In this document: in pieces, positions 2,586 to 17,979 of the stretch
How the letters are laid out: the number at the start of each line of letters is the position of its first letter
Position numbering within the stretch: position 1 is the stretch's first letter
IMG/VR virus record: IMGVR_UViG_2563366869_000001
Length of the DNA stretch: 18,667 nucleotides
Reading direction: 5' to 3' (one strand)
Source: a virus
Lineage: Duplodnaviria; Heunggongvirae; Uroviricota; Caudoviricetes
Notes under the pieces: generated by a model
The model's database searches: none
Told to the model about the DNA's origin: nothing
The model's input: only the letters and a program-made list of their open reading frames with translations
Program-made: the position numbers and the translations under genes

Positions 2586-2678
2586 TTTGTTCTCCACGTA
2601 TATGCACTGCACCGCGCTGAATTCTGGTAAAAGGAAGCCCTCACCATCCGGTGATTATTGAGTTAATTACGTTTCCAT

Positions 2679-2700
2679 AAATGCCCCCGCAGGGGCATTT
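2679..2700 (-). other. Intergenic stem-loop (9-bp stem AAATGCCCC/GGGGCATTT, 4-nt loop) between yfdQ-like and yfdR-like genes
   Basis: Perfect inverted repeat seen directly; no strong U-tract on either strand, so more likely an RNA processing or stability element or attenuator than a strong terminator. Confidence 0.3.
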
Positions 2701-2712
2701 GCAGTAATGAAA

Positions 2713-3537
2713 TCAGGCGGTGAAAGTACCAATAAAGGTTTCTACTTTGCTGTCTTTGAATTTCTCAACAAGCAGATCACGAAATTCGTTAGCCATTTCT
2801 TCCTGCACCGCTTCCAGCTGAATAATGCGCAGAACCAGTACAGGACGATCGCCAGTGATAATGCTGAGGCGTAATTTAAACGGACGTTCTTTCAGACCTT
2901 CAAACGGAACGCATTTAAATTCAAATGCCACTGGCATAATGTCTTTGGTCTTCGCTTCGACAGACTCCATCAGGGAGCGTTTGCCGCTGAAGTCATTATC
3001 TTCAAAATCAGCGGTCTGGTTTGCTTCAATCGTGATTTTACGGACTGCCGCAGCCGCTTTTGTTGCTTGAATGGCGTCACCATTAGCATCAAAGCCCACA
3101 AGGTAGTCGGCCCAGTCTTCGATCCATTCTGCCAGTGACTTCTGGGAGTTACGCTCGCCGTTAACAGACAACAGAGCAGAGAACGGTGCTGTCTTTTTCA
3201 GTTTGAGAGTGGCAGTGTTATCTGCGTGACCTGGCTCATCAATAGTACCCAGGTTAAGCACACTGACGGCACGCATATTATCGGCATCGATAAAGCAGCG
3301 GGTGCCTTCATCTGCAAGATCTTTAGAATAACGGGTAAAATCATCGATGCTGGCAGTGGAAAGTGCACCACGGAAACGGAAGCGATTTAAATTAAATTTT
3401 TCCAGATCATGAATGCGGAAATTCTCAGGCAATGCCACAGCATCGGCACCAATCTTACTGATAATTTCATTAACACCCTGAGCAGAAATAAGGGCATGGA
3501 TTTGATTAATTGCGGTTGCGTCTAAGTTCTGAGACAT
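2713..3537 (-). CDS. YfdQ-like protein (DUF2303 family), 274 aa
   Basis: Full-length ORF with SD GAGGA 7 nt upstream; sequence recalled as similar to E. coli CPS-53 prophage YfdQ. Confidence 0.8.
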
Positions 3538-3602: not shown

Positions 3603-3965
3603 TTAACGACCTGCTGCGCGGAGTTTTCCGTCAGGTTCACCGGCAAGAGTCAGTAATTGTCCCTGGTCTTCCTGCAGAATAGTCAGGCGACCACCGCGAT
3701 TGACATACATCGGCGTTTCGGTGGTGTCTTCTTCGGAAATTTTCCCGCGGTTAGTCGGGCGAATATATGAGAGTTTGTGTTTGATTTTCACACGGTTCTC
3801 ATCAAATGGTTCGATTTCCAGGTTGAGTGAGACCTTACCTTTGGTTTTCGTGTTCATCACACCGGAAGCGACTTCACTGAGAACTGCGCCGATTTTGGTT
3901 TCAAATACGCCGCCGTCCAGCTCCCCGATAAATGCCTGCACATCAGTACTGCGTTCGCTAGCCAT
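3603..3965 (-). CDS. YfdP-like small protein (120 aa)
   Basis: Start assigned to ATG 3965..3963 (MASERSTDVQ...) preceded by SD GAGGAG at 7-nt spacing; the longer upstream extension in the ORF track has non-protein-like composition. Confidence 0.75.
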   Translation of the reverse strand: MASERSTDVQAFIGELDGGVFETKIGAVLSEVASGVMNTKTKGKVSLNLEIEPFDENRVKIKHKLSYIRPTNRGKISEEDTTETPMYVNRGGRLTILQEDQGQLLTLAGEPDGKLRAAGR

Positions 3966-4013
3966 TTTGCTGCTCCTCATCATATCGACCCTGCAAGGCC
4001 GATTAGTTTCTCC

Positions 4014-4102
4014 ACAAAACAGAGAAGAACACCTGTGGTGGCCGCCGCCCGGATGGATTGGGTTATGAGCCCGTCGTCCGGTGATGCTCTTCTCTGTTTT
4101 GT
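4014..4102. repeat. 15-bp perfect inverted repeat (ACAAAACAGAGAAGA / TCTTCTCTGTTTTGT) enclosing a 59-bp GC-rich segment
   Basis: Arms at 4014..4028 and 4088..4102 are exact reverse complements; lies in a non-coding leader upstream of the leftward operon. Confidence 0.7.
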
Positions 4103-4110
4103 AAAAAGGA

Positions 4111-4147
4111 CGGTACCAGCCGGAAGCAAGGGTACAAGCTGGTACCG
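4111..4147. repeat. 10-bp inverted repeat (CGGTACCAGC / GCTGGTACCG) with 17-nt loop
   Basis: Seen directly at 4111..4120 and 4138..4147; adjacent to three GGTGCC direct repeats (4175..4197) and a GCCTGG/CCAGGC stem (4195..4219). Confidence 0.6.
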
Positions 4148-4373
4148 CCAGGACTACACACAGCATAAAGTTGTGGTGCCGGGTGCCTCCCGGTGCCTGG
4201 CGAAGGTTGCACACCAGGCGGGTGGGTATCCACAGAAGGTCGACTGTCAGCCTCAACCTTAACCCGCGTGCGCTGAGCCGCATTCACCACAACGCTAAGG
4301 ATTCTCTCTGGTTGAAAATACTTAGCTGTTATGTGCCTGCTTTTAGCCACATCAGGCGAGGTGGACCTGGTTA

Positions 4374-4421
4374 TTCCCCAACAACAAGGATTCGGTTAAT
4401 CTGGATATCCCCAACAACAAT
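4374..4421 (+). repeat. Two direct copies of TCCCCAACAACAA spaced 34 bp apart, immediately upstream of the orf164 start
   Basis: Exact 13-mer at 4374..4386 and 4408..4420; the second copy ends about 14 nt before the candidate GTG start. Confidence 0.6.
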
Positions 4422-4434
4422 AAGAGTATTCAAT

Positions 4435-4950
4435 GTGATCGCTGAATTAACGGCAGCAATGACGGCTATTCGTGAAACAGCCCAGATTGCAAAACTAATG
4501 AACGAGGCAAAAACTCAAGCTGAAGTAAATGCGGCTATTGGTGAGCTGAACTCAAAGCTTGCGTCTATTCAGCGCGAATGCGTGTCTCTCGTTGAACTGG
4601 TGGGCTCTTATCAAGAAATAAATGCTTCTCTCAAAGCTAAAATTGCAGAATTCGAAAACTTTGAGGCTCAGACGGAAGGCTATATCCTTAACCAACTTGA
4701 GTCGGGTACTTTTGTATACTCGAAGGAGGTAATCGTGAACGGTGGCAGCATAACCATGCATCTTTGCCCAAAATGTTTTGGACAAAAGATAGTATCGATA
4801 CTTCAACCATTCCCGGTTAGCGAAGATGAGCTTTTTCATAAAAGCAGGTGCCTCCACTGTGAAAATAAGTTTCTGATGAATAAAAATCCGGATTACGTAT
4901 CGCCTCCATCCATTGAGGAGTTGTCCAGAAAACTTAACGGCAATCTGTAG
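4435..4950 (+). CDS. Hypothetical protein: N-terminal coiled-coil-like region plus C-terminal C4 zinc-ribbon (CPKC-x24-CLHC); convergent to cI
   Basis: Protein-like composition begins near GTG 4435 (AAGAG SD at 8-nt spacing) or ATG 4459; the upstream part of the track ORF (from 4171) is Arg/His/Trp-rich and GC-rich, so likely non-coding. Start is uncertain. Confidence 0.6.
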   Translation: MIAELTAAMTAIRETAQIAKLMNEAKTQAEVNAAIGELNSKLASIQRECVSLVELVGSYQEINASLKAKIAEFENFEAQTEGYILNQLESGTFVYSKEVIVNGGSITMHLCPKCFGQKIVSILQPFPVSEDELFHKSRCLHCENKFLMNKNPDYVSPPSIEELSRKLNGNL

Positions 4951-4987
4951 ATTACTACTGTTGTGGATATCCAGATTGTTAAAGAGC

Positions 4988-5012
4988 TAAGCGTCCTGTA
5001 GGGCGCTTTTTT
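4988..5012 (+). terminator. Rho-independent terminator downstream of orf164
   Basis: Stem AGCGTCC/GGGCGCT with 4-nt loop followed by TTTTTT, 38 nt after the TAG stop at 4948..4950; oriented for plus-strand transcripts only. Confidence 0.65.
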
Positions 5013-5094
5013 GTTGCTAACGAATCATCCTGGACTTCATATGCCCCAGGCGGCTACTTCGTGGGCGTCCTGCCTGTTCGTTATCTTTGATATA

Positions 5095-5124
5095 AAATCT
5101 AACTTAACTTAGTTATCATGACAA
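5095..5124 (-). promoter_or_regulatory. Candidate pL-like leftward promoter with overlapping operator motif AACTTAGTT
   Basis: On the minus strand: -35 TTGTCA (5124..5119), 18-bp spacer, -10 TAGATT (5100..5095); the 9-mer AACTTAGTT (5106..5114) in the spacer recurs at the pR side (5883..5891). By-eye prediction. Confidence 0.35.
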
Positions 5125-5177
5125 GAGAAAACACCAAACTTTTCTTGGTTCGGTGCCTTAGTTAGAGAAGAGAGGTC

Positions 5178-5804
5178 TTAGAGTTCGTATTGAACTCCTT
5201 TGACTACACCAATGATAAGGCAATTACCATTGATAGGGATGTTGGGATACCGAGGATTTAATGGCACTAAAAACTTTTGAGGGCCATCGATGACTAATTT
5301 TTTTACTGTAGCTTCGTTTGTTCCATCAAGTCGAGCGATGACTATTTTTCCATGACGAGGTTCTGCATCTGGATCTACAATCACTGTTGCGCCTTCTGGT
5401 ATTGTTGGGAGGCCATTAGGGTTAGTCATGGAGTCACCTTTAACCTCTAATGCAAATGAGTTATCACCAACCTTTAATGATGTATCTACCCACTTGTCCA
5501 CTTCACTAAACACTTCTGCTGCCCTGCACTCAGTAAACTGCCCAGCCTGAACCCACGATATTACAGGAACTCTGCGCATGTTTGTGACGAGTTTGCCTTC
5601 AAACTCAGCACCGTAAAGAATGTAATCTATTGACGTATTGAAGAACTTCGCTAATTTCGAAAGTGCCTCCCCGCCAGGGGTATTGATGTCTTTCTCCCAG
5701 TACCCCACAGCAACGTCGCTTACTCCACAAAATTTACCCAATTCTTTCTGGGACGTTCTGGTAACTCTTCTCAGAGCTTTTATACGCTGACCAACCGTTT
5801 CCAT
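5178..5804 (-). CDS. CI-like prophage repressor (N-terminal HTH plus C-terminal LexA/S24-type autopeptidase domain)
   Basis: 208-aa ORF; HTH near QKELGKFCGVSDVAVGYWE; C-terminal region with Ser (GDSM) and Lys (TVKKL) spaced as in the S24 catalytic dyad; divergent from a cro-like gene. Confidence 0.9.
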   Translation of the reverse strand: METVGQRIKALRRVTRTSQKELGKFCGVSDVAVGYWEKDINTPGGEALSKLAKFFNTSIDYILYGAEFEGKLVTNMRRVPVISWVQAGQFTECRAAEVFSEVDKWVDTSLKVGDNSFALEVKGDSMTNPNGLPTIPEGATVIVDPDAEPRHGKIVIARLDGTNEATVKKLVIDGPQKFLVPLNPRYPNIPINGNCLIIGVVKGVQYEL

Positions 5805-5826
5805 AGGAGCACCATTTCTTTAATCG

Positions 5827-5891
5827 CTAAGTAATCTTAGTTTTTATTGACCAAAGATAGATTTGTAATTAGCATCTAACAAAACTTAGTT
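5827..5891 (+). promoter_or_regulatory. Immunity-region operator/promoter (pR-like; pRM probably overlaps on the opposite strand)
   Basis: Palindrome CTAAGTAATCTTAG (5827..5840); -35 TTGACC (5847..5852), 17-bp spacer, -10 TAGCAT (5870..5875); AACTTAGTT at 5883..5891; cro SD GGAGGG follows. Confidence 0.5.
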
Positions 5892-11009: not shown

Positions 11010-11026
11010 TTTTGTGGAGAAAGTTA

Positions 11027-11410
11027 ATGCGTGATATTCAGATGGTTCTTGAACGTTGGGGAGCGTGGGCGGCTAATAATCATGAAGATGTGACCTGGTC
11101 GTCCATTGCCGCCGGTTTTAAGGGATTAATTCCTTCAAAAGTAAAATCTCGCCCGCAATGTTGTGACGATGACGCGATGATCATTTGCGGGTGCATGGCC
11201 CGTCTGAAAAAGAACAACAGCGATTTGCACGATTTATTAGTAGATTATTATGTAGTCGGTATGACATTCATGTCACTGGCAGGTAAGCATTGCTGCTCTG
11301 ATGGTTATATCGGGAAAAGGTTACAGAAGGCTGAGGGCATAATTGAAGGGATGTTAATGGCATTAGATATCCGGTTAGAGATGGATATCGTTGTTAATAA
11401 CTCTAATTAA
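11027..11410 (+). CDS. Late-gene antiterminator Q (phage 82 / QuuD-type), 127 aa
   Basis: Start at ATG 11027 with SD GGAGA; Cys-rich region ([27 protein letters not shown]) characteristic of this Q family, from memory. Confidence 0.85.
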
Positions 11411-11461: not shown

Positions 11462-11600
11462 CAAAAATAAAGGGTAATATATAACAGAAGGTTTATATAG
11501 TTAGAAGCAAGGTTGTGCTTCTAAAGGAAGTGGCTTGAGGGAGCCACTTATATGTTGGGGAGGCAACGCCTCCCGCAACATATCTTTTTCGTAATCAGAT
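11462..11600 (-). ncRNA. Candidate sRNA or structured 3' UTR downstream of the porin gene (IpeX-like position)
   Basis: Three consecutive hairpins (11503..11522, 11528..11549, 11558..11574) between the porin stop and its terminator; in DLP12 the sRNA IpeX maps between quuD and nmpC (recalled, not verified). Confidence 0.3.
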
Positions 11601-12697
11601 TAGAACTGGTAAACCAGACCTACAGCAACGATGTCATCAGTGCTTACACCGAGTGCTTTAGTGAAGTCATTTTTGTCAAGCAGGTTGATTTTGTAATCAA
11701 CGAAAGTAGACATATTTTTGTTGAAGTAATAGGTTGCACCTACATCAACATATTTGACTAAGTCCTGATCGCCCCATACTCCAAGATCCTTACCTTTAGA
11801 TTGCAGGTAAGCAACGGACGGACGCAGACCGAAATCGAACTGATATTGTGCAACAGCTTCGAAGTTTTGGGCTTTATTAGCAACGAAGTGATCAGCAAAT
11901 ACAGTCATATTCTGGGTTTCAGAATAGGTAGTGGCCAGGTAAATGTTGTTAGCGTCATATTTCAGACCTGCGGCCCAAACTTCTGCATTTTTACCGGAAG
12001 CAAATACTTCAGGAAGAACTTTCCCTGCATTAACTTGAGTGTCGGTACGATCAGATTTCGCATAAGTTGCACCGATACCGAATCCTTCGTATTCATAGGT
12101 AGCAGAGAAACCGAAGCCATCACCGTTACCTTCAGTGTAGTTATCGAAATCGCTACGATCGTTTTTGCCTTGGTACTGAGCAGCAAAGTTCAGACCATCA
12201 ACCAGACCAAAGAAGTCGTTGTTACGATAGGTTGCAACACCAGTGGTGCGACCAGTCATGAACACATCTGTTTGGGTCCAGGTATCGCCACCGAATTCTG
12301 GCAGAACGTCAGTCCACGCACCGATGTCGTATGCTACACCGTAGTTACGGCCGTAATCGATTGAGCCGTAGTCACCGAATTTCAGGCCTGCAAATGCAAG
12401 ACGGGTTTTGTCTTTGGAGGAACCTTGAGATTCAGCGCGGTTGCCTTTGAATTCATATTCCCACTGACCGAAACCAGTCAGTTGATCGTTGATTTGGGTT
12501 TCACCTTTGAAGCCAAGACGGGCATAAGTAGTATCACCATCATCTGCATCATTAGAGGAGAAGTAGTGCTTAGCATTAACTTTCCCGTACAGATCCAGCT
12601 TGTTACTGTCTTTATTATAAATTTCAGCTGCCTGAGCAGACATCGCCATCAGTACTGATGCAGCTACAGCAGAAATTGCCACTGTTAATTTTTTCAT
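11600..12697 (-). CDS. Phage-encoded OmpC-family general porin (Lc/NmpC-type), with signal peptide
   Basis: Start at ATG 12697 ([30 protein letters not shown]); C-terminal aromatic residue (…VGLVYQF); porin sequence characteristic throughout; encoded opposite to Q and the lysis genes. Confidence 0.92.
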
Positions 12698-13124
12698 CGT
12701 GAGCCCTTTTTTTGAACTATTATTAAAAAATGATGTCACTGCGCGATAAATATTCATCTAATCAATGTGATTATTTCAAGATGTAAGTTTTGGTTTCTCG
12801 TTTGATTTGTGAAGTAGATCTCTATTTTTATCTGAACTTTTTTCTATCGAATCCTATTCATAGCTCTTTGCTGAATAAAAATAAATCTATTAGCCAATTT
12901 ATATTAACGGCTGTTATTTATAAGCGCTCTATAATTTGAGGGTTCAATTTAAATAAGCTAAAAATAACACTGGAAATAATTTGTTGGTTATTTGTTGAGA
13001 TTTGCTTATGTATTTGTAGTGGTGTTTTCAATACTCGGTAGCATTCTCGCAAATATCATTTAGTGGTTTACGTACGTAAAAAATTGGTTATGCTGTTAAG
13101 AGTGGTTACTTCGTCACACAGCTT

Positions 13125-17404: not shown

Positions 17405-17979
17405 TGGCATTCAGAATGAGTGAACAACCACGGACCATAAAAATTTATAATCTGCTGGCCGGAACTAATGAATTTATTGGTGAAGGTGACGCATATATTC
17501 CGCCTCATACAGGTCTGCCAGCAAACAGTACCGATATTGCACCACCAGATATTCCTGCTGGCTTTGTGGCTGTTTTCAACAGTGATAAGGCATCGTGGCA
17601 TCTCGTTGAAGACCATCGGGGTAAAACGGTTTATGACGTAGCGTCAGGGGACGCGTTATTTATTTCTGAACTCGGTCCGTTACCGGAAAATGTTACCTGG
17701 TTATCGCCGGAAGGGGAGTTTCAGAAGTGGAACGGCACAGCCTGGGTGAAAGATGCAGAAGCAGAAAAACTGTTCCGGATCCGAGAGGCGGAAGAAACAA
17801 AAAACAGCCTGATGCAGGTAGCCAGTGAGCATATTGCGCCACTTCAGGATGCTGTAGATCTGGAAATCGCAACGGAGGAAGAAACCTCATTGCTGGAAGC
17901 CTGGAAAAAGTATCGGGTGTTGCTGAACCGTGTTGATACGTCAACTGCACAGGATATTGAATGGCCAGCACTGCCGTAG
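17404..17979 (+). CDS. tfa: Tail fibre assembly protein Tfa
   Basis: 191-aa [57 protein letters not shown]... matches lambda/Rac Tfa from memory; ATG overlaps the stf stop. Confidence 0.88.

Follow-up and report, generated by a model that had tools for sequence, protein, structure and literature searches.

Structured RNAs in the operons of lambdoid phages

PasD1 and PasD2 are abundant, Hfq-dependent small RNAs (sRNAs) from prophages of enteropathogenic Escherichia coli, known from Northern blots and from RIL-seq (PMC8550237). STnc100, to which a 2026 preprint relates PasD (10.64898/2026.05.13.724894), overlaps the Hfq-binding EcOnc27/sRNA103 just downstream of stx2B (PMC12711010, PMC12370729). 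DicF of the E. coli K-12 prophage Qin occurs in two forms, one of 190 nt with a 5' end generated by RNase III and one of 53 nt that needs RNase E; the study describing them reports nothing on the spacer between dicF and dicB (10.1101/2023.04.14.536235). Here we describe a five-helix, pseudoknotted RNA domain of the STnc100/PasD superfamily at positions 4170-4293 (minus strand, 124 nt) of the window, by which we mean the whole 18,667-nt stretch analysed, a lambdoid prophage catalogued as IMG/VR record IMGVR_UViG_2563366869_000001. The domain lies in an island of about 300 bp ahead of the first protein gene of the early-left operon, and we regard it as well supported that this island encodes, on its minus strand, a modular non-coding RNA cassette with a divergent STnc100/PasD-type core.

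In phage λ, the N leader carries nutL and an RNase III hairpin before the N gene. The window resembles this arrangement in having a long hairpin (4014-4102) just upstream of the ribosome-binding site (RBS) of its first early-left gene, yfdP, but it has no N gene, and no boxA or boxB was identified. There is also a parallel in HK022, another lambdoid phage that lacks N, whose early leader likewise contains a structured RNA with terminators downstream. In HK022, the put RNAs measure about 70 nt, are built of two stem-loops and form a pair, putL lying just downstream of PL and putR about 270 nt from the PR start (PMC9378689). A put-like mechanism has been suggested for phage LLS, which lacks N and has a yfdP/yfdQ/yfdR-type early-left operon, by the authors who describe it, and early antitermination in this N-less lambdoid group is an acknowledged open question (PMC12315714).

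A divergent STnc100/PasD-type domain with a pseudoknot

The informative strand of the island is the minus strand, which is also the direction of the early-left operon. Read along it, the domain of the window consists of a closing helix P1 (4293-4285 / 4178-4170), an AAU junction (4284-4282), helix P2 (4281-4266) with the pentaloop UCAGC and a bulged A, helix P3 (4265-4262 / 4223-4220), helix P4 (4219-4214 / 4200-4195), and helix P5 (4193-4179), which reads CCGGG-AGGCA-CCCGG. We call this form the 'GCGGC' subtype. A permissive Rfam scan gave a single meaningful match, to STnc100 (RF02076), at 42.4 bits (E 7.3e-8) over the full model length (4323-4100, minus strand). Other Rfam families gave chance-level matches alone at E<=10 (ftsZ-DE, hairpin ribozyme), none of them a riboswitch, and ARAGORN found no tRNA or tmRNA in the window.

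Relatives were collected by scanning viral contigs for the conserved 3' motif ACCGGGARGCACCCGGCACC, which yielded at least 120 loci with 84 distinct cores, every core starting GGUGAAU. The cores fall into two groups, a canonical one whose P2 is CCCCC-UGUGC-GG(A)GGG and the subtype of the window, whose P2 is GCGGC-UCAGC-GC(A)CGC. Stem length, the UNNGC pentaloop and the bulged A of P2 are the same in both, and all of its pairs are compensated (CCCCC/GGGGG versus GCGGC/GCCGC). RNAalifold recovered helices P1-P5 from a MAFFT alignment of 52 non-redundant sequences; the same alignment was turned into a covariance model, R1, under which the window reaches 88.6 bits. When 86 relatives were aligned to the model, 97.4% of the pair cells were paired, as against 77.8% in shuffles, and 16 of the 24 pairs showed compensatory change on both sides. 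The covariation score of these relatives is 0.521, compared with 0.156 in shuffles (0 of 500 reach it) and at most 0.148 in slid controls; the alignment is fitted to R1, which favours the structure, and the independent MAFFT result agrees. Folding and covariance analysis across homologues, a check named by a first-pass annotation of this DNA, finds the structure kept by compensatory change. The covariation contradicts one of the four identities which that annotation had offered for the island, a degraded inserted element. A small RNA gene fits best among the four, given the divergent STnc100/PasD-type core, a seed-like stretch and an intrinsic terminator; the four-option reading as a whole is partly supported.

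Immediately after P2/P3 comes a strand complementary to the loop of P4; pairing of the two gives a pseudoknot that covaries across subtypes. It is formed in the window by AAGGUUG (4260-4254) and CAACCUU (4209-4203, both minus strand), in phiES15 by AAGGCUG and CAGCCUU, in phage P1 by UGGUUAU and AUAACCA, in the L017 copy by GACUGACAAA and UUUGUCAGUC, and in the Qin copy of K-12 by CAGUUAA and UUAACUG; among canonical copies CCAGUC pairs with GACUGG, UCAGC with GCUGA, and CUGGUGU with ACACCGG. Since the strands are out of register between subtypes, column-wise counting on the model alignment failed, and the pairing was tested by permuting partners. True partners have a mean helix score of 7.04, and permuted ones 5.68 +/- 0.17 with a maximum of 6.25. 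The consensus structure of STnc100 in Rfam consists of nested pairs only, without the pseudoknot. On these sequence comparisons, the domain is a divergent member of the STnc100/PasD family with a conserved pseudoknot.

The likeness to STnc100/PasD comprises the closing helix GGUG/CACC, the AAU junction, the UNNGC pentaloop of P2 with its bulged A, a CCGGG-AGGCA-CCCGG hairpin (P5) right next to the 3' strand of the closing helix, the position of the pseudoknot, a downstream intrinsic terminator, and carriage by prophages of Enterobacterales. The window element differs in that its P2 stem is fully swapped and its interior is different. It also belongs to a repressor-controlled early operon, whereas STnc100 is found downstream of stx/Q in the late region. 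Finally, its subtype has a linker motif of its own, UGCUGUGU: 18 of the subtype's 22 distinct contexts show it before the terminator, and 69 of 69 canonical ones lack it.

The island as a whole is highly structured, as the first-pass annotation had said: the folding energy of 4000-4330 on the minus strand is -139.5 kcal/mol, whereas 100 shuffles give -108.3 +/- 5.7 kcal/mol and none of them does as well (z -5.47). The repeats that had been read from the sequence are all there, namely a perfect 15-bp inverted repeat (4014-4028 / 4088-4102) enclosing 59 nt, a perfect 10-bp inverted repeat with a 17-nt loop (4111-4120 / 4138-4147), three direct GGTGCC repeats (at 4175, 4182 and 4192), and a 6-bp stem GCCTGG / CCAGGC (4195-4200 / 4214-4219). 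A wider inverted repeat (4014-4031 / 4085-4102) is 18 nt long and 94% complementary. The extent given earlier, 4010-4300, does capture a structured unit but ends too soon, as structure runs to about 4326. Likewise, the island is GC-rich (0.54-0.59), but its contrast to the flanks, described as sharp and the flanks as AT-rich, is moderate (0.46-0.50 on the left, 0.43-0.45 on the right).

The island had been said to hold no protein-like frame. Mechanical open reading frames (ORFs) do cross it, two on the minus strand (3603-4283 and 4063-4350) and one on the plus strand (4035-4262), but none has a Pfam or NCBIfam match or a conserved frame. The possibility that the island is a decayed coding sequence, or a degraded inserted repeat element, draws on the label 'frameshifted hypothetical protein' given to 3980-4290 by the Prokaryotic Genome Annotation Pipeline (PGAP), on the hypothetical ORFs that phage annotators have put there, and on the yfdP frame, which is open upstream as far as 4283. 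The homologues speak against it: no frame is open throughout them (the sole stop-free case comes from the Qin stretch, which is just 174 nt long, in one minus-strand frame), core lengths of 114, 113, 108 and 110 nt do not vary in steps of three, and the helices carry compensatory substitutions. A decayed gene or repeat is, in our view, scarcely credible.

Terminator, flanking hairpins and copies elsewhere

Downstream of the domain comes a single-stranded linker (4150-4169, minus strand) holding a conserved stretch, UGCUGUGUGUAGUC (4165-4152), which is a candidate seed or RNase E site. It leads into an intrinsic terminator (4103-4149, minus strand) with a 13-bp stem (4149-4137 / 4121-4109), a 15-nt loop and a U5 tract (4107-4103). 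By script, the T-run of the window sits 67 nt past the end of the 3' motif GGCACC; an intrinsic terminator follows within 200 nt in 85 of 101 distinct family contexts, the commonest spacing being 45-60 nt. The terminators of the E. coli, Salmonella and Cronobacter copies are not homologous to each other.

The linker and terminator also invite comparison with DicF. In Shigella flexneri L136, a Qin-type domain is directly preceded by the stretch UGCUGUGUG joined to a terminator of the DicF type. This places the linker and terminator of the window in the DicF slot; a weak match of the DicF model (RF00039) at 4162-4108, which at 15.9 bits (E 0.99) does not reach the cut-off of 48, agrees with this placement. 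The window shares with the dicBF operon of Qin a repressor, an early promoter, a long leader, a terminated sRNA in mid-operon and genes reached by read-through. The sequence UGGCGGUAYCAG is common to its terminator region and DicF, and in both systems the pseudoknotted domain adjoins a terminated sRNA module within a repressor-controlled early operon. The order is different, however, with the domain preceding the sRNA module in the window and following DicF in Qin, and the single-stranded stretch of the window is unlike that of DicF, whose body pairs with ftsZ. We also considered whether the 5' extension (137 nt) of the longer, 190-nt form is homologous to the domain, which it resembles by eye (GGUUGUGG..., ...CACCGGG...), and rejected this, as it gave no model match at E<=1.

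The domain and its terminator are flanked by two further hairpins. P0 (4294-4326, minus strand) stands directly 5' of the closing helix; a hairpin in this position is kept in ST64B, phiES15, phage P1 and others, with unrelated sequences. On the other side, the 5' untranslated region of yfdP contains the long hairpin of 89 nt (4014-4102, minus strand), with a stem of about 20 bp, a minimum free energy of -40.8 kcal/mol (z -5.72) and compensatory changes relative to ST64B; it ends 48 nt ahead of the yfdP start codon. This hairpin is likely to be a processing or stability element. An RNase III processing site, another of the identities offered earlier for the island, is plausible for it alone among the structures of the island, in view of its stem.

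Processing could also be all that the cassette does, its hairpins (P0, the long hairpin and the extended closing helix) serving for RNase III and RNase E entry and for blocking Rho, so that the untranslated leader would be divided into stable segments, and the domain having no further function. The stem at 4014-4102, a closing helix of about 23 bp in Qin, and the dependence of the 190-nt and 53-nt DicF forms on RNase III and RNase E (10.1101/2023.04.14.536235) are in line with this idea. So is the leader of about 1.1 kb from the candidate pL promoter to yfdP, in which a coding stretch exists only on the opposite strand and which would otherwise be exposed to Rho. Processing sites have no need of an invariant pentaloop, a bulged A or a covarying pseudoknot, however, and the closing helix of the window has just 9 bp; we consider this account very unlikely.

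The apical stem-loop of the long hairpin, CGGGCUCAUAACCC (4073-4060, minus strand), has the same 14 nt as the E. coli initiator tRNA (metY) has in its anticodon stem-loop and consists of three G-C pairs and the loop CUCAUAA. A related apical motif tops the P0 hairpin in the phage P1 copy (CGGGUUCAUAUCCC) and in contig L023, and the motif was found only beside this domain subtype. The CAU is not invariant, as one E. coli variant has the loop UUAAUAA, which weakens the idea that the long hairpin mimics initiator tRNA; any part it might play as a mimic or decoy of the anticodon arm is purely speculative.

The subtype of the window lies between the repressor gene and the first early-left gene also in ST64B (before a yfdP homologue) and phiES15 (before kil), and has the same placement in the uncultivated phage contigs L009, L023 and L046, where the upstream ORFs look like different repressors by eye from their N-termini. 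Phage mEp460 (L129, 2350-2494) has in the same position a third, more divergent subtype that scores 23 bits and whose P5 is CCGG-AGAUCAGCA-CCGG; the same terminator and long hairpin follow it. In the O157:H7 phage Stx2a_1447 (L174), the repressor gene is followed by about 780 nt of non-coding DNA and yfdP, and the terminator is common with mEp460. A species-level genome scan combined with the model confines the subtype to Enterobacterales (Escherichia, Shigella, Klebsiella, Raoultella, Enterobacter, Pantoea and Mixta). Pattern matches in Pseudomonas, Burkholderia, Luteimonas and others had no model match and were dismissed as chance matches to a GC-rich pattern. The stretch 3950-4450 is matched in 3,088 of 5,426 complete E. 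coli genomes and is at least 80% covered in 1,324, counts that do not stand for the RNA domain alone, since the stretch includes the start of yfdP. ST64B has in its early-right region, near sb41, the Hfq-binding isrK RNA (RF01394, 64.3 bits, above the cut-off; L003, 21-97, minus strand of the locus).

Two copies occupy well-studied operons. In phage P1, upl and tciA of the C1-controlled ban operon flank the domain (L004, 2506-2620; NC_005856, about 70082-70196), and a hairpin directly after it, AACCUUAU/AUGAGGUU, read by eye, is predicted to sequester the tciA Shine-Dalgarno sequence. The ban operon also holds a 'dicF-like region' and three tRNA genes. In K-12 MG1655, an unannotated copy is present in the dicF-dicB spacer of Qin (NC_000913.3, 1649449-1649586; L172, 2950-3087; 69.9 bits, E 6e-19), where it directly follows the dicF terminator and precedes dicB. 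Its P5, CCUGG-AGGCA-CCAGG, is a compensatory variant with the loop unchanged, and its closing helix, which with flanks measures about 23 bp, ends 2 nt before the dicB Shine-Dalgarno sequence.

Copies of this kind bring up a leader of the aptamer type, in which the domain, as a ligand sensor or a protein-binding site, would control what comes next, a terminator in the window or an RBS in phage P1 and Qin. A conserved pseudoknotted core joined to interchangeable downstream modules (mostly terminators, and the Shine-Dalgarno hairpin of tciA in phage P1) would suit such a device, as would the reach of the Qin closing helix towards dicB and the several genomes in which the domain has no sRNA 3' module. 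On the other hand, no alternative pairing between domain and terminator, of the antiterminator sort, is evident in the units examined, and there is no candidate ligand or protein. A leader is also ill matched to the autonomous-unit arrays, which have no downstream gene. We judge this explanation fairly unlikely. The arrays in question, present on some viral contigs, are tandem runs of 3-5 STnc100-type units (L025, 367-994; L073, 4374-5465; L015, 2320-3356), each unit made of the domain, a short AU-rich linker and a terminator, with a spacing of about 250 nt and promoter-like spacers; the units differ in interior and pseudoknot sequence. Canonical family members are found either in late operons under Q control or in arrays whose units are self-contained and terminated.

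The early-left operon and the possible action of the cassette

The integration site of the prophage adjoins a tRNA-Arg gene beside fimZ. Over the tested stretch, Escherichia phage PhiR29_1 and many E. coli chromosomes are 100% identical to the window, and SfV, SfIV and SfII are close relatives of the prophage. The early-left operon runs on the minus strand from yfdP (3603-3965; RBS GAGGAG at 3978-3973), its first protein gene, through yfdQ (2713-3537), yfdR, an EaE-like gene and yfdT to int (1-1164). Beyond the island lie a LexA-type repressor gene, cI (about 5165-5839, minus strand), and, after it, a cro-like gene on the plus strand. None of the early-left genes between cI and int is of the N type, and the island belongs to the operon leader upstream of yfdP, so that the first-pass description of an N-less leftward operon with a structured leader was correct. 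A Q antiterminator gene is present at 11012-11410.

The promoter scan placed a candidate pL at 5096-5124 (minus strand; -35 TTGTCA, 17-nt spacer, -10 TAGATT). An operator-like repeat, CTAACTTAACTTAG (5098-5112), overlaps it and is a candidate repressor operator; operator-like CTAA-N6-TTAG sequences are found also at 5826-5840 and 5875-5888, between cI and cro. A segment of the leader close to pL (5020-5085, minus strand; CGAACAGGCAGGACGCCCACGAAGTAGCCGCC...) is common to ST64B, where it lies just downstream of the operators. The pL-proximal leader (5092-4985) was ruled out as a structured element, its fold not being significant (z -1.27). Between this segment and the island there is a gene cassette on the opposite strand (4398-4977, plus strand), whose gene (4435-4950) encodes 171 aa with a coiled coil and two CxxC motifs and has no family match above threshold. 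Inverted repeats of 26 nt (4398-4423 / 4952-4977), 85% complementary, bracket the gene, and its terminator is at 4989-5008 (plus strand). ST64B has no such gene between cI and the RNA element, yet has the pL-proximal leader in common with the window, and the cassette gene is therefore best seen as an insertion into the pL leader, which pL transcripts must cross in antisense. A block at 4365-4330 is conserved with phiES15, where by eye it resembles a divergent promoter belonging to an opposite-strand gene of that phage; as a promoter in the window it was rejected, since the -10 is not kept.

Three further observations concern other parts of the window. The yfdQ-yfdR spacer (2598-2713, minus strand) matches the domain model at 19.3 bits, and the match recurs at the homologous positions of K-12 and mEp460; it is mainly one GC hairpin, GCCCCUGCGGGGGC, and was discarded as a second domain copy, being probably a stem-loop or terminator. 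A porin gene (11600-12757, minus strand; Pfam Porin_1, E 1e-156), on the opposite strand just downstream of the Q gene, resembles a lysogenic-conversion gene that was inserted into the late region. A full-length IS009 RNA (Rfam RF02111) is present at 17747-17945 (plus strand), at 226.7 bits against a cut-off of 117.

The position of the domain in an N-less leader gives some weight to a cis-acting antitermination RNA of the put kind, in which the nascent domain would bind RNA polymerase and override the terminator at 4109-4149 and later ones, replacing N. The phage has Q and no N gene, and the domain is in the pL leader upstream of a strong terminator before yfdP-int, with no promoter found between. 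It recurs in the same position in several phage lineages without an annotated N gene, and its invariant loops suggest recognition by a macromolecule. Membership in the HK022 put type, which the first-pass annotation had raised, is nevertheless contradicted by sequence, model search, architecture and copy number. A hallmark of put is terminator read-through in cis that needs no further factor but depends on the zinc-binding domain of beta-prime. R1 found no match at E<=10 in the whole HK022 genome, and blastn against put gave only chance matches of 11-28 nt. The window element is 124 nt long, has five helices and a pseudoknot where put has two stem-loops, and is situated about 800 nt from the candidate pL. 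R1 finds a single convincing copy in the window, with none downstream of pR, whereas put RNAs form a pair. In Qin and S. flexneri L136 the domain lies after the terminator, and antitermination would make no sense in the Q-controlled late operons or self-terminated arrays of canonical members. Antitermination by the domain is accordingly an account that we hold unlikely.

We favour a different course of events, as a reading that is probable though well short of firm: on induction, a discrete sRNA would be made from pL, ending at 4103-4107 and possibly trimmed by RNase E, with read-through into yfdP-int and with the long hairpin acting in processing or stability. Inactivation of the repressor would start transcription from pL (about 5090), which would cross the RNA cassette. 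A fraction of the transcripts would stop at the U-tract (4107-4103), giving a discrete RNA of some 190-230 nt, depending on its 5' end. This RNA would probably be associated with Hfq, as its relatives PasD and EcOnc27 are known to be. A cut by RNase E in the AU-rich linker could leave a 3' fragment of about 60 nt, the size of DicF, which could act in trans via UGCUGUGUGUAGUC. Transcripts that read through would pass the long hairpin (4102-4014) into yfdP-yfdQ-yfdR and on to int. In favour of this reading are the terminators of most family contexts, the arrays of terminated units, the discrete, Hfq-bound relatives, the parallel with DicF and the recurrence of the subtype behind repressor genes.

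Several findings weigh against an sRNA of this sort. The window does not reach the Rfam gathering score of RF02076, 47 bits, and neither do its same-subtype relatives ST64B, phage P1 and phiES15, which score 33-41 bits on the STnc100 model. The candidate pL is about 800 nt from the element, across an opposite-strand gene, and the promoter scan found no minus-strand promoter nearer to it, between 4330 and 4440. As to targets, UGCUGUGUGUAGUC gave nothing significant within the window, and its duplex energy with the ftsZ start region was no better than shuffled, in a crude test in which DicF itself is not significant. The copies of phage P1, Qin, Klebsiella and Raoultella have no seed or terminator after the domain, and a start codon directly follows; such copies imply that the domain has a role independent of the sRNA 3' module. 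The invariant hairpin loop and the pseudoknot are odd for a simple base-pairing sRNA and suggest that the domain is recognised by some partner, be it a protein, RNA polymerase or a ligand. With copies that stand before dicB and tciA without the 3' module, this loop and pseudoknot leave room for a cis-regulatory or polymerase-modifying role. The rival explanations taken together amount to a real, if minor, possibility. The most general formulation goes beyond the 5' body of a base-pairing sRNA and makes the domain an autonomous RNA fold, not recognised before, of enterobacterial temperate phages, which would act in cis on early operons with RNA polymerase, a protein or a ligand as its binding partner; we put it forward as doubtful.

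Since all copies tested score below the family cut-off, annotation based on Rfam would miss the subtype of the window. In the public records examined, the RNA at the island is unannotated, its place being left blank or given to a hypothetical protein or pseudogene, and neither those records nor the literature covered describe the domain in the K-12 dicF-dicB spacer or the ban operon of phage P1. The same fold turns up in two classic systems. The pseudoknot is new relative to the Rfam STnc100 consensus and allows precise compensatory mutants to be made for the study of STnc100/PasD function. In widespread N-less lambdoid phages, the element sits where an early antitermination or regulatory device is expected, and the N-less leader layout is present also in some O157:H7 Stx2 phages. 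Should the domain prove to be an autonomous cis-acting fold, it might provide N-independent control of terminator read-through, or control of expression of the dicB/tciA type. The unannotated copy in the K-12 dicF-dicB spacer would then be a regulator of dicB, and N-less lambdoid phages of the yfdP type, some Stx2 phages included, would control their early genes by means of this domain.

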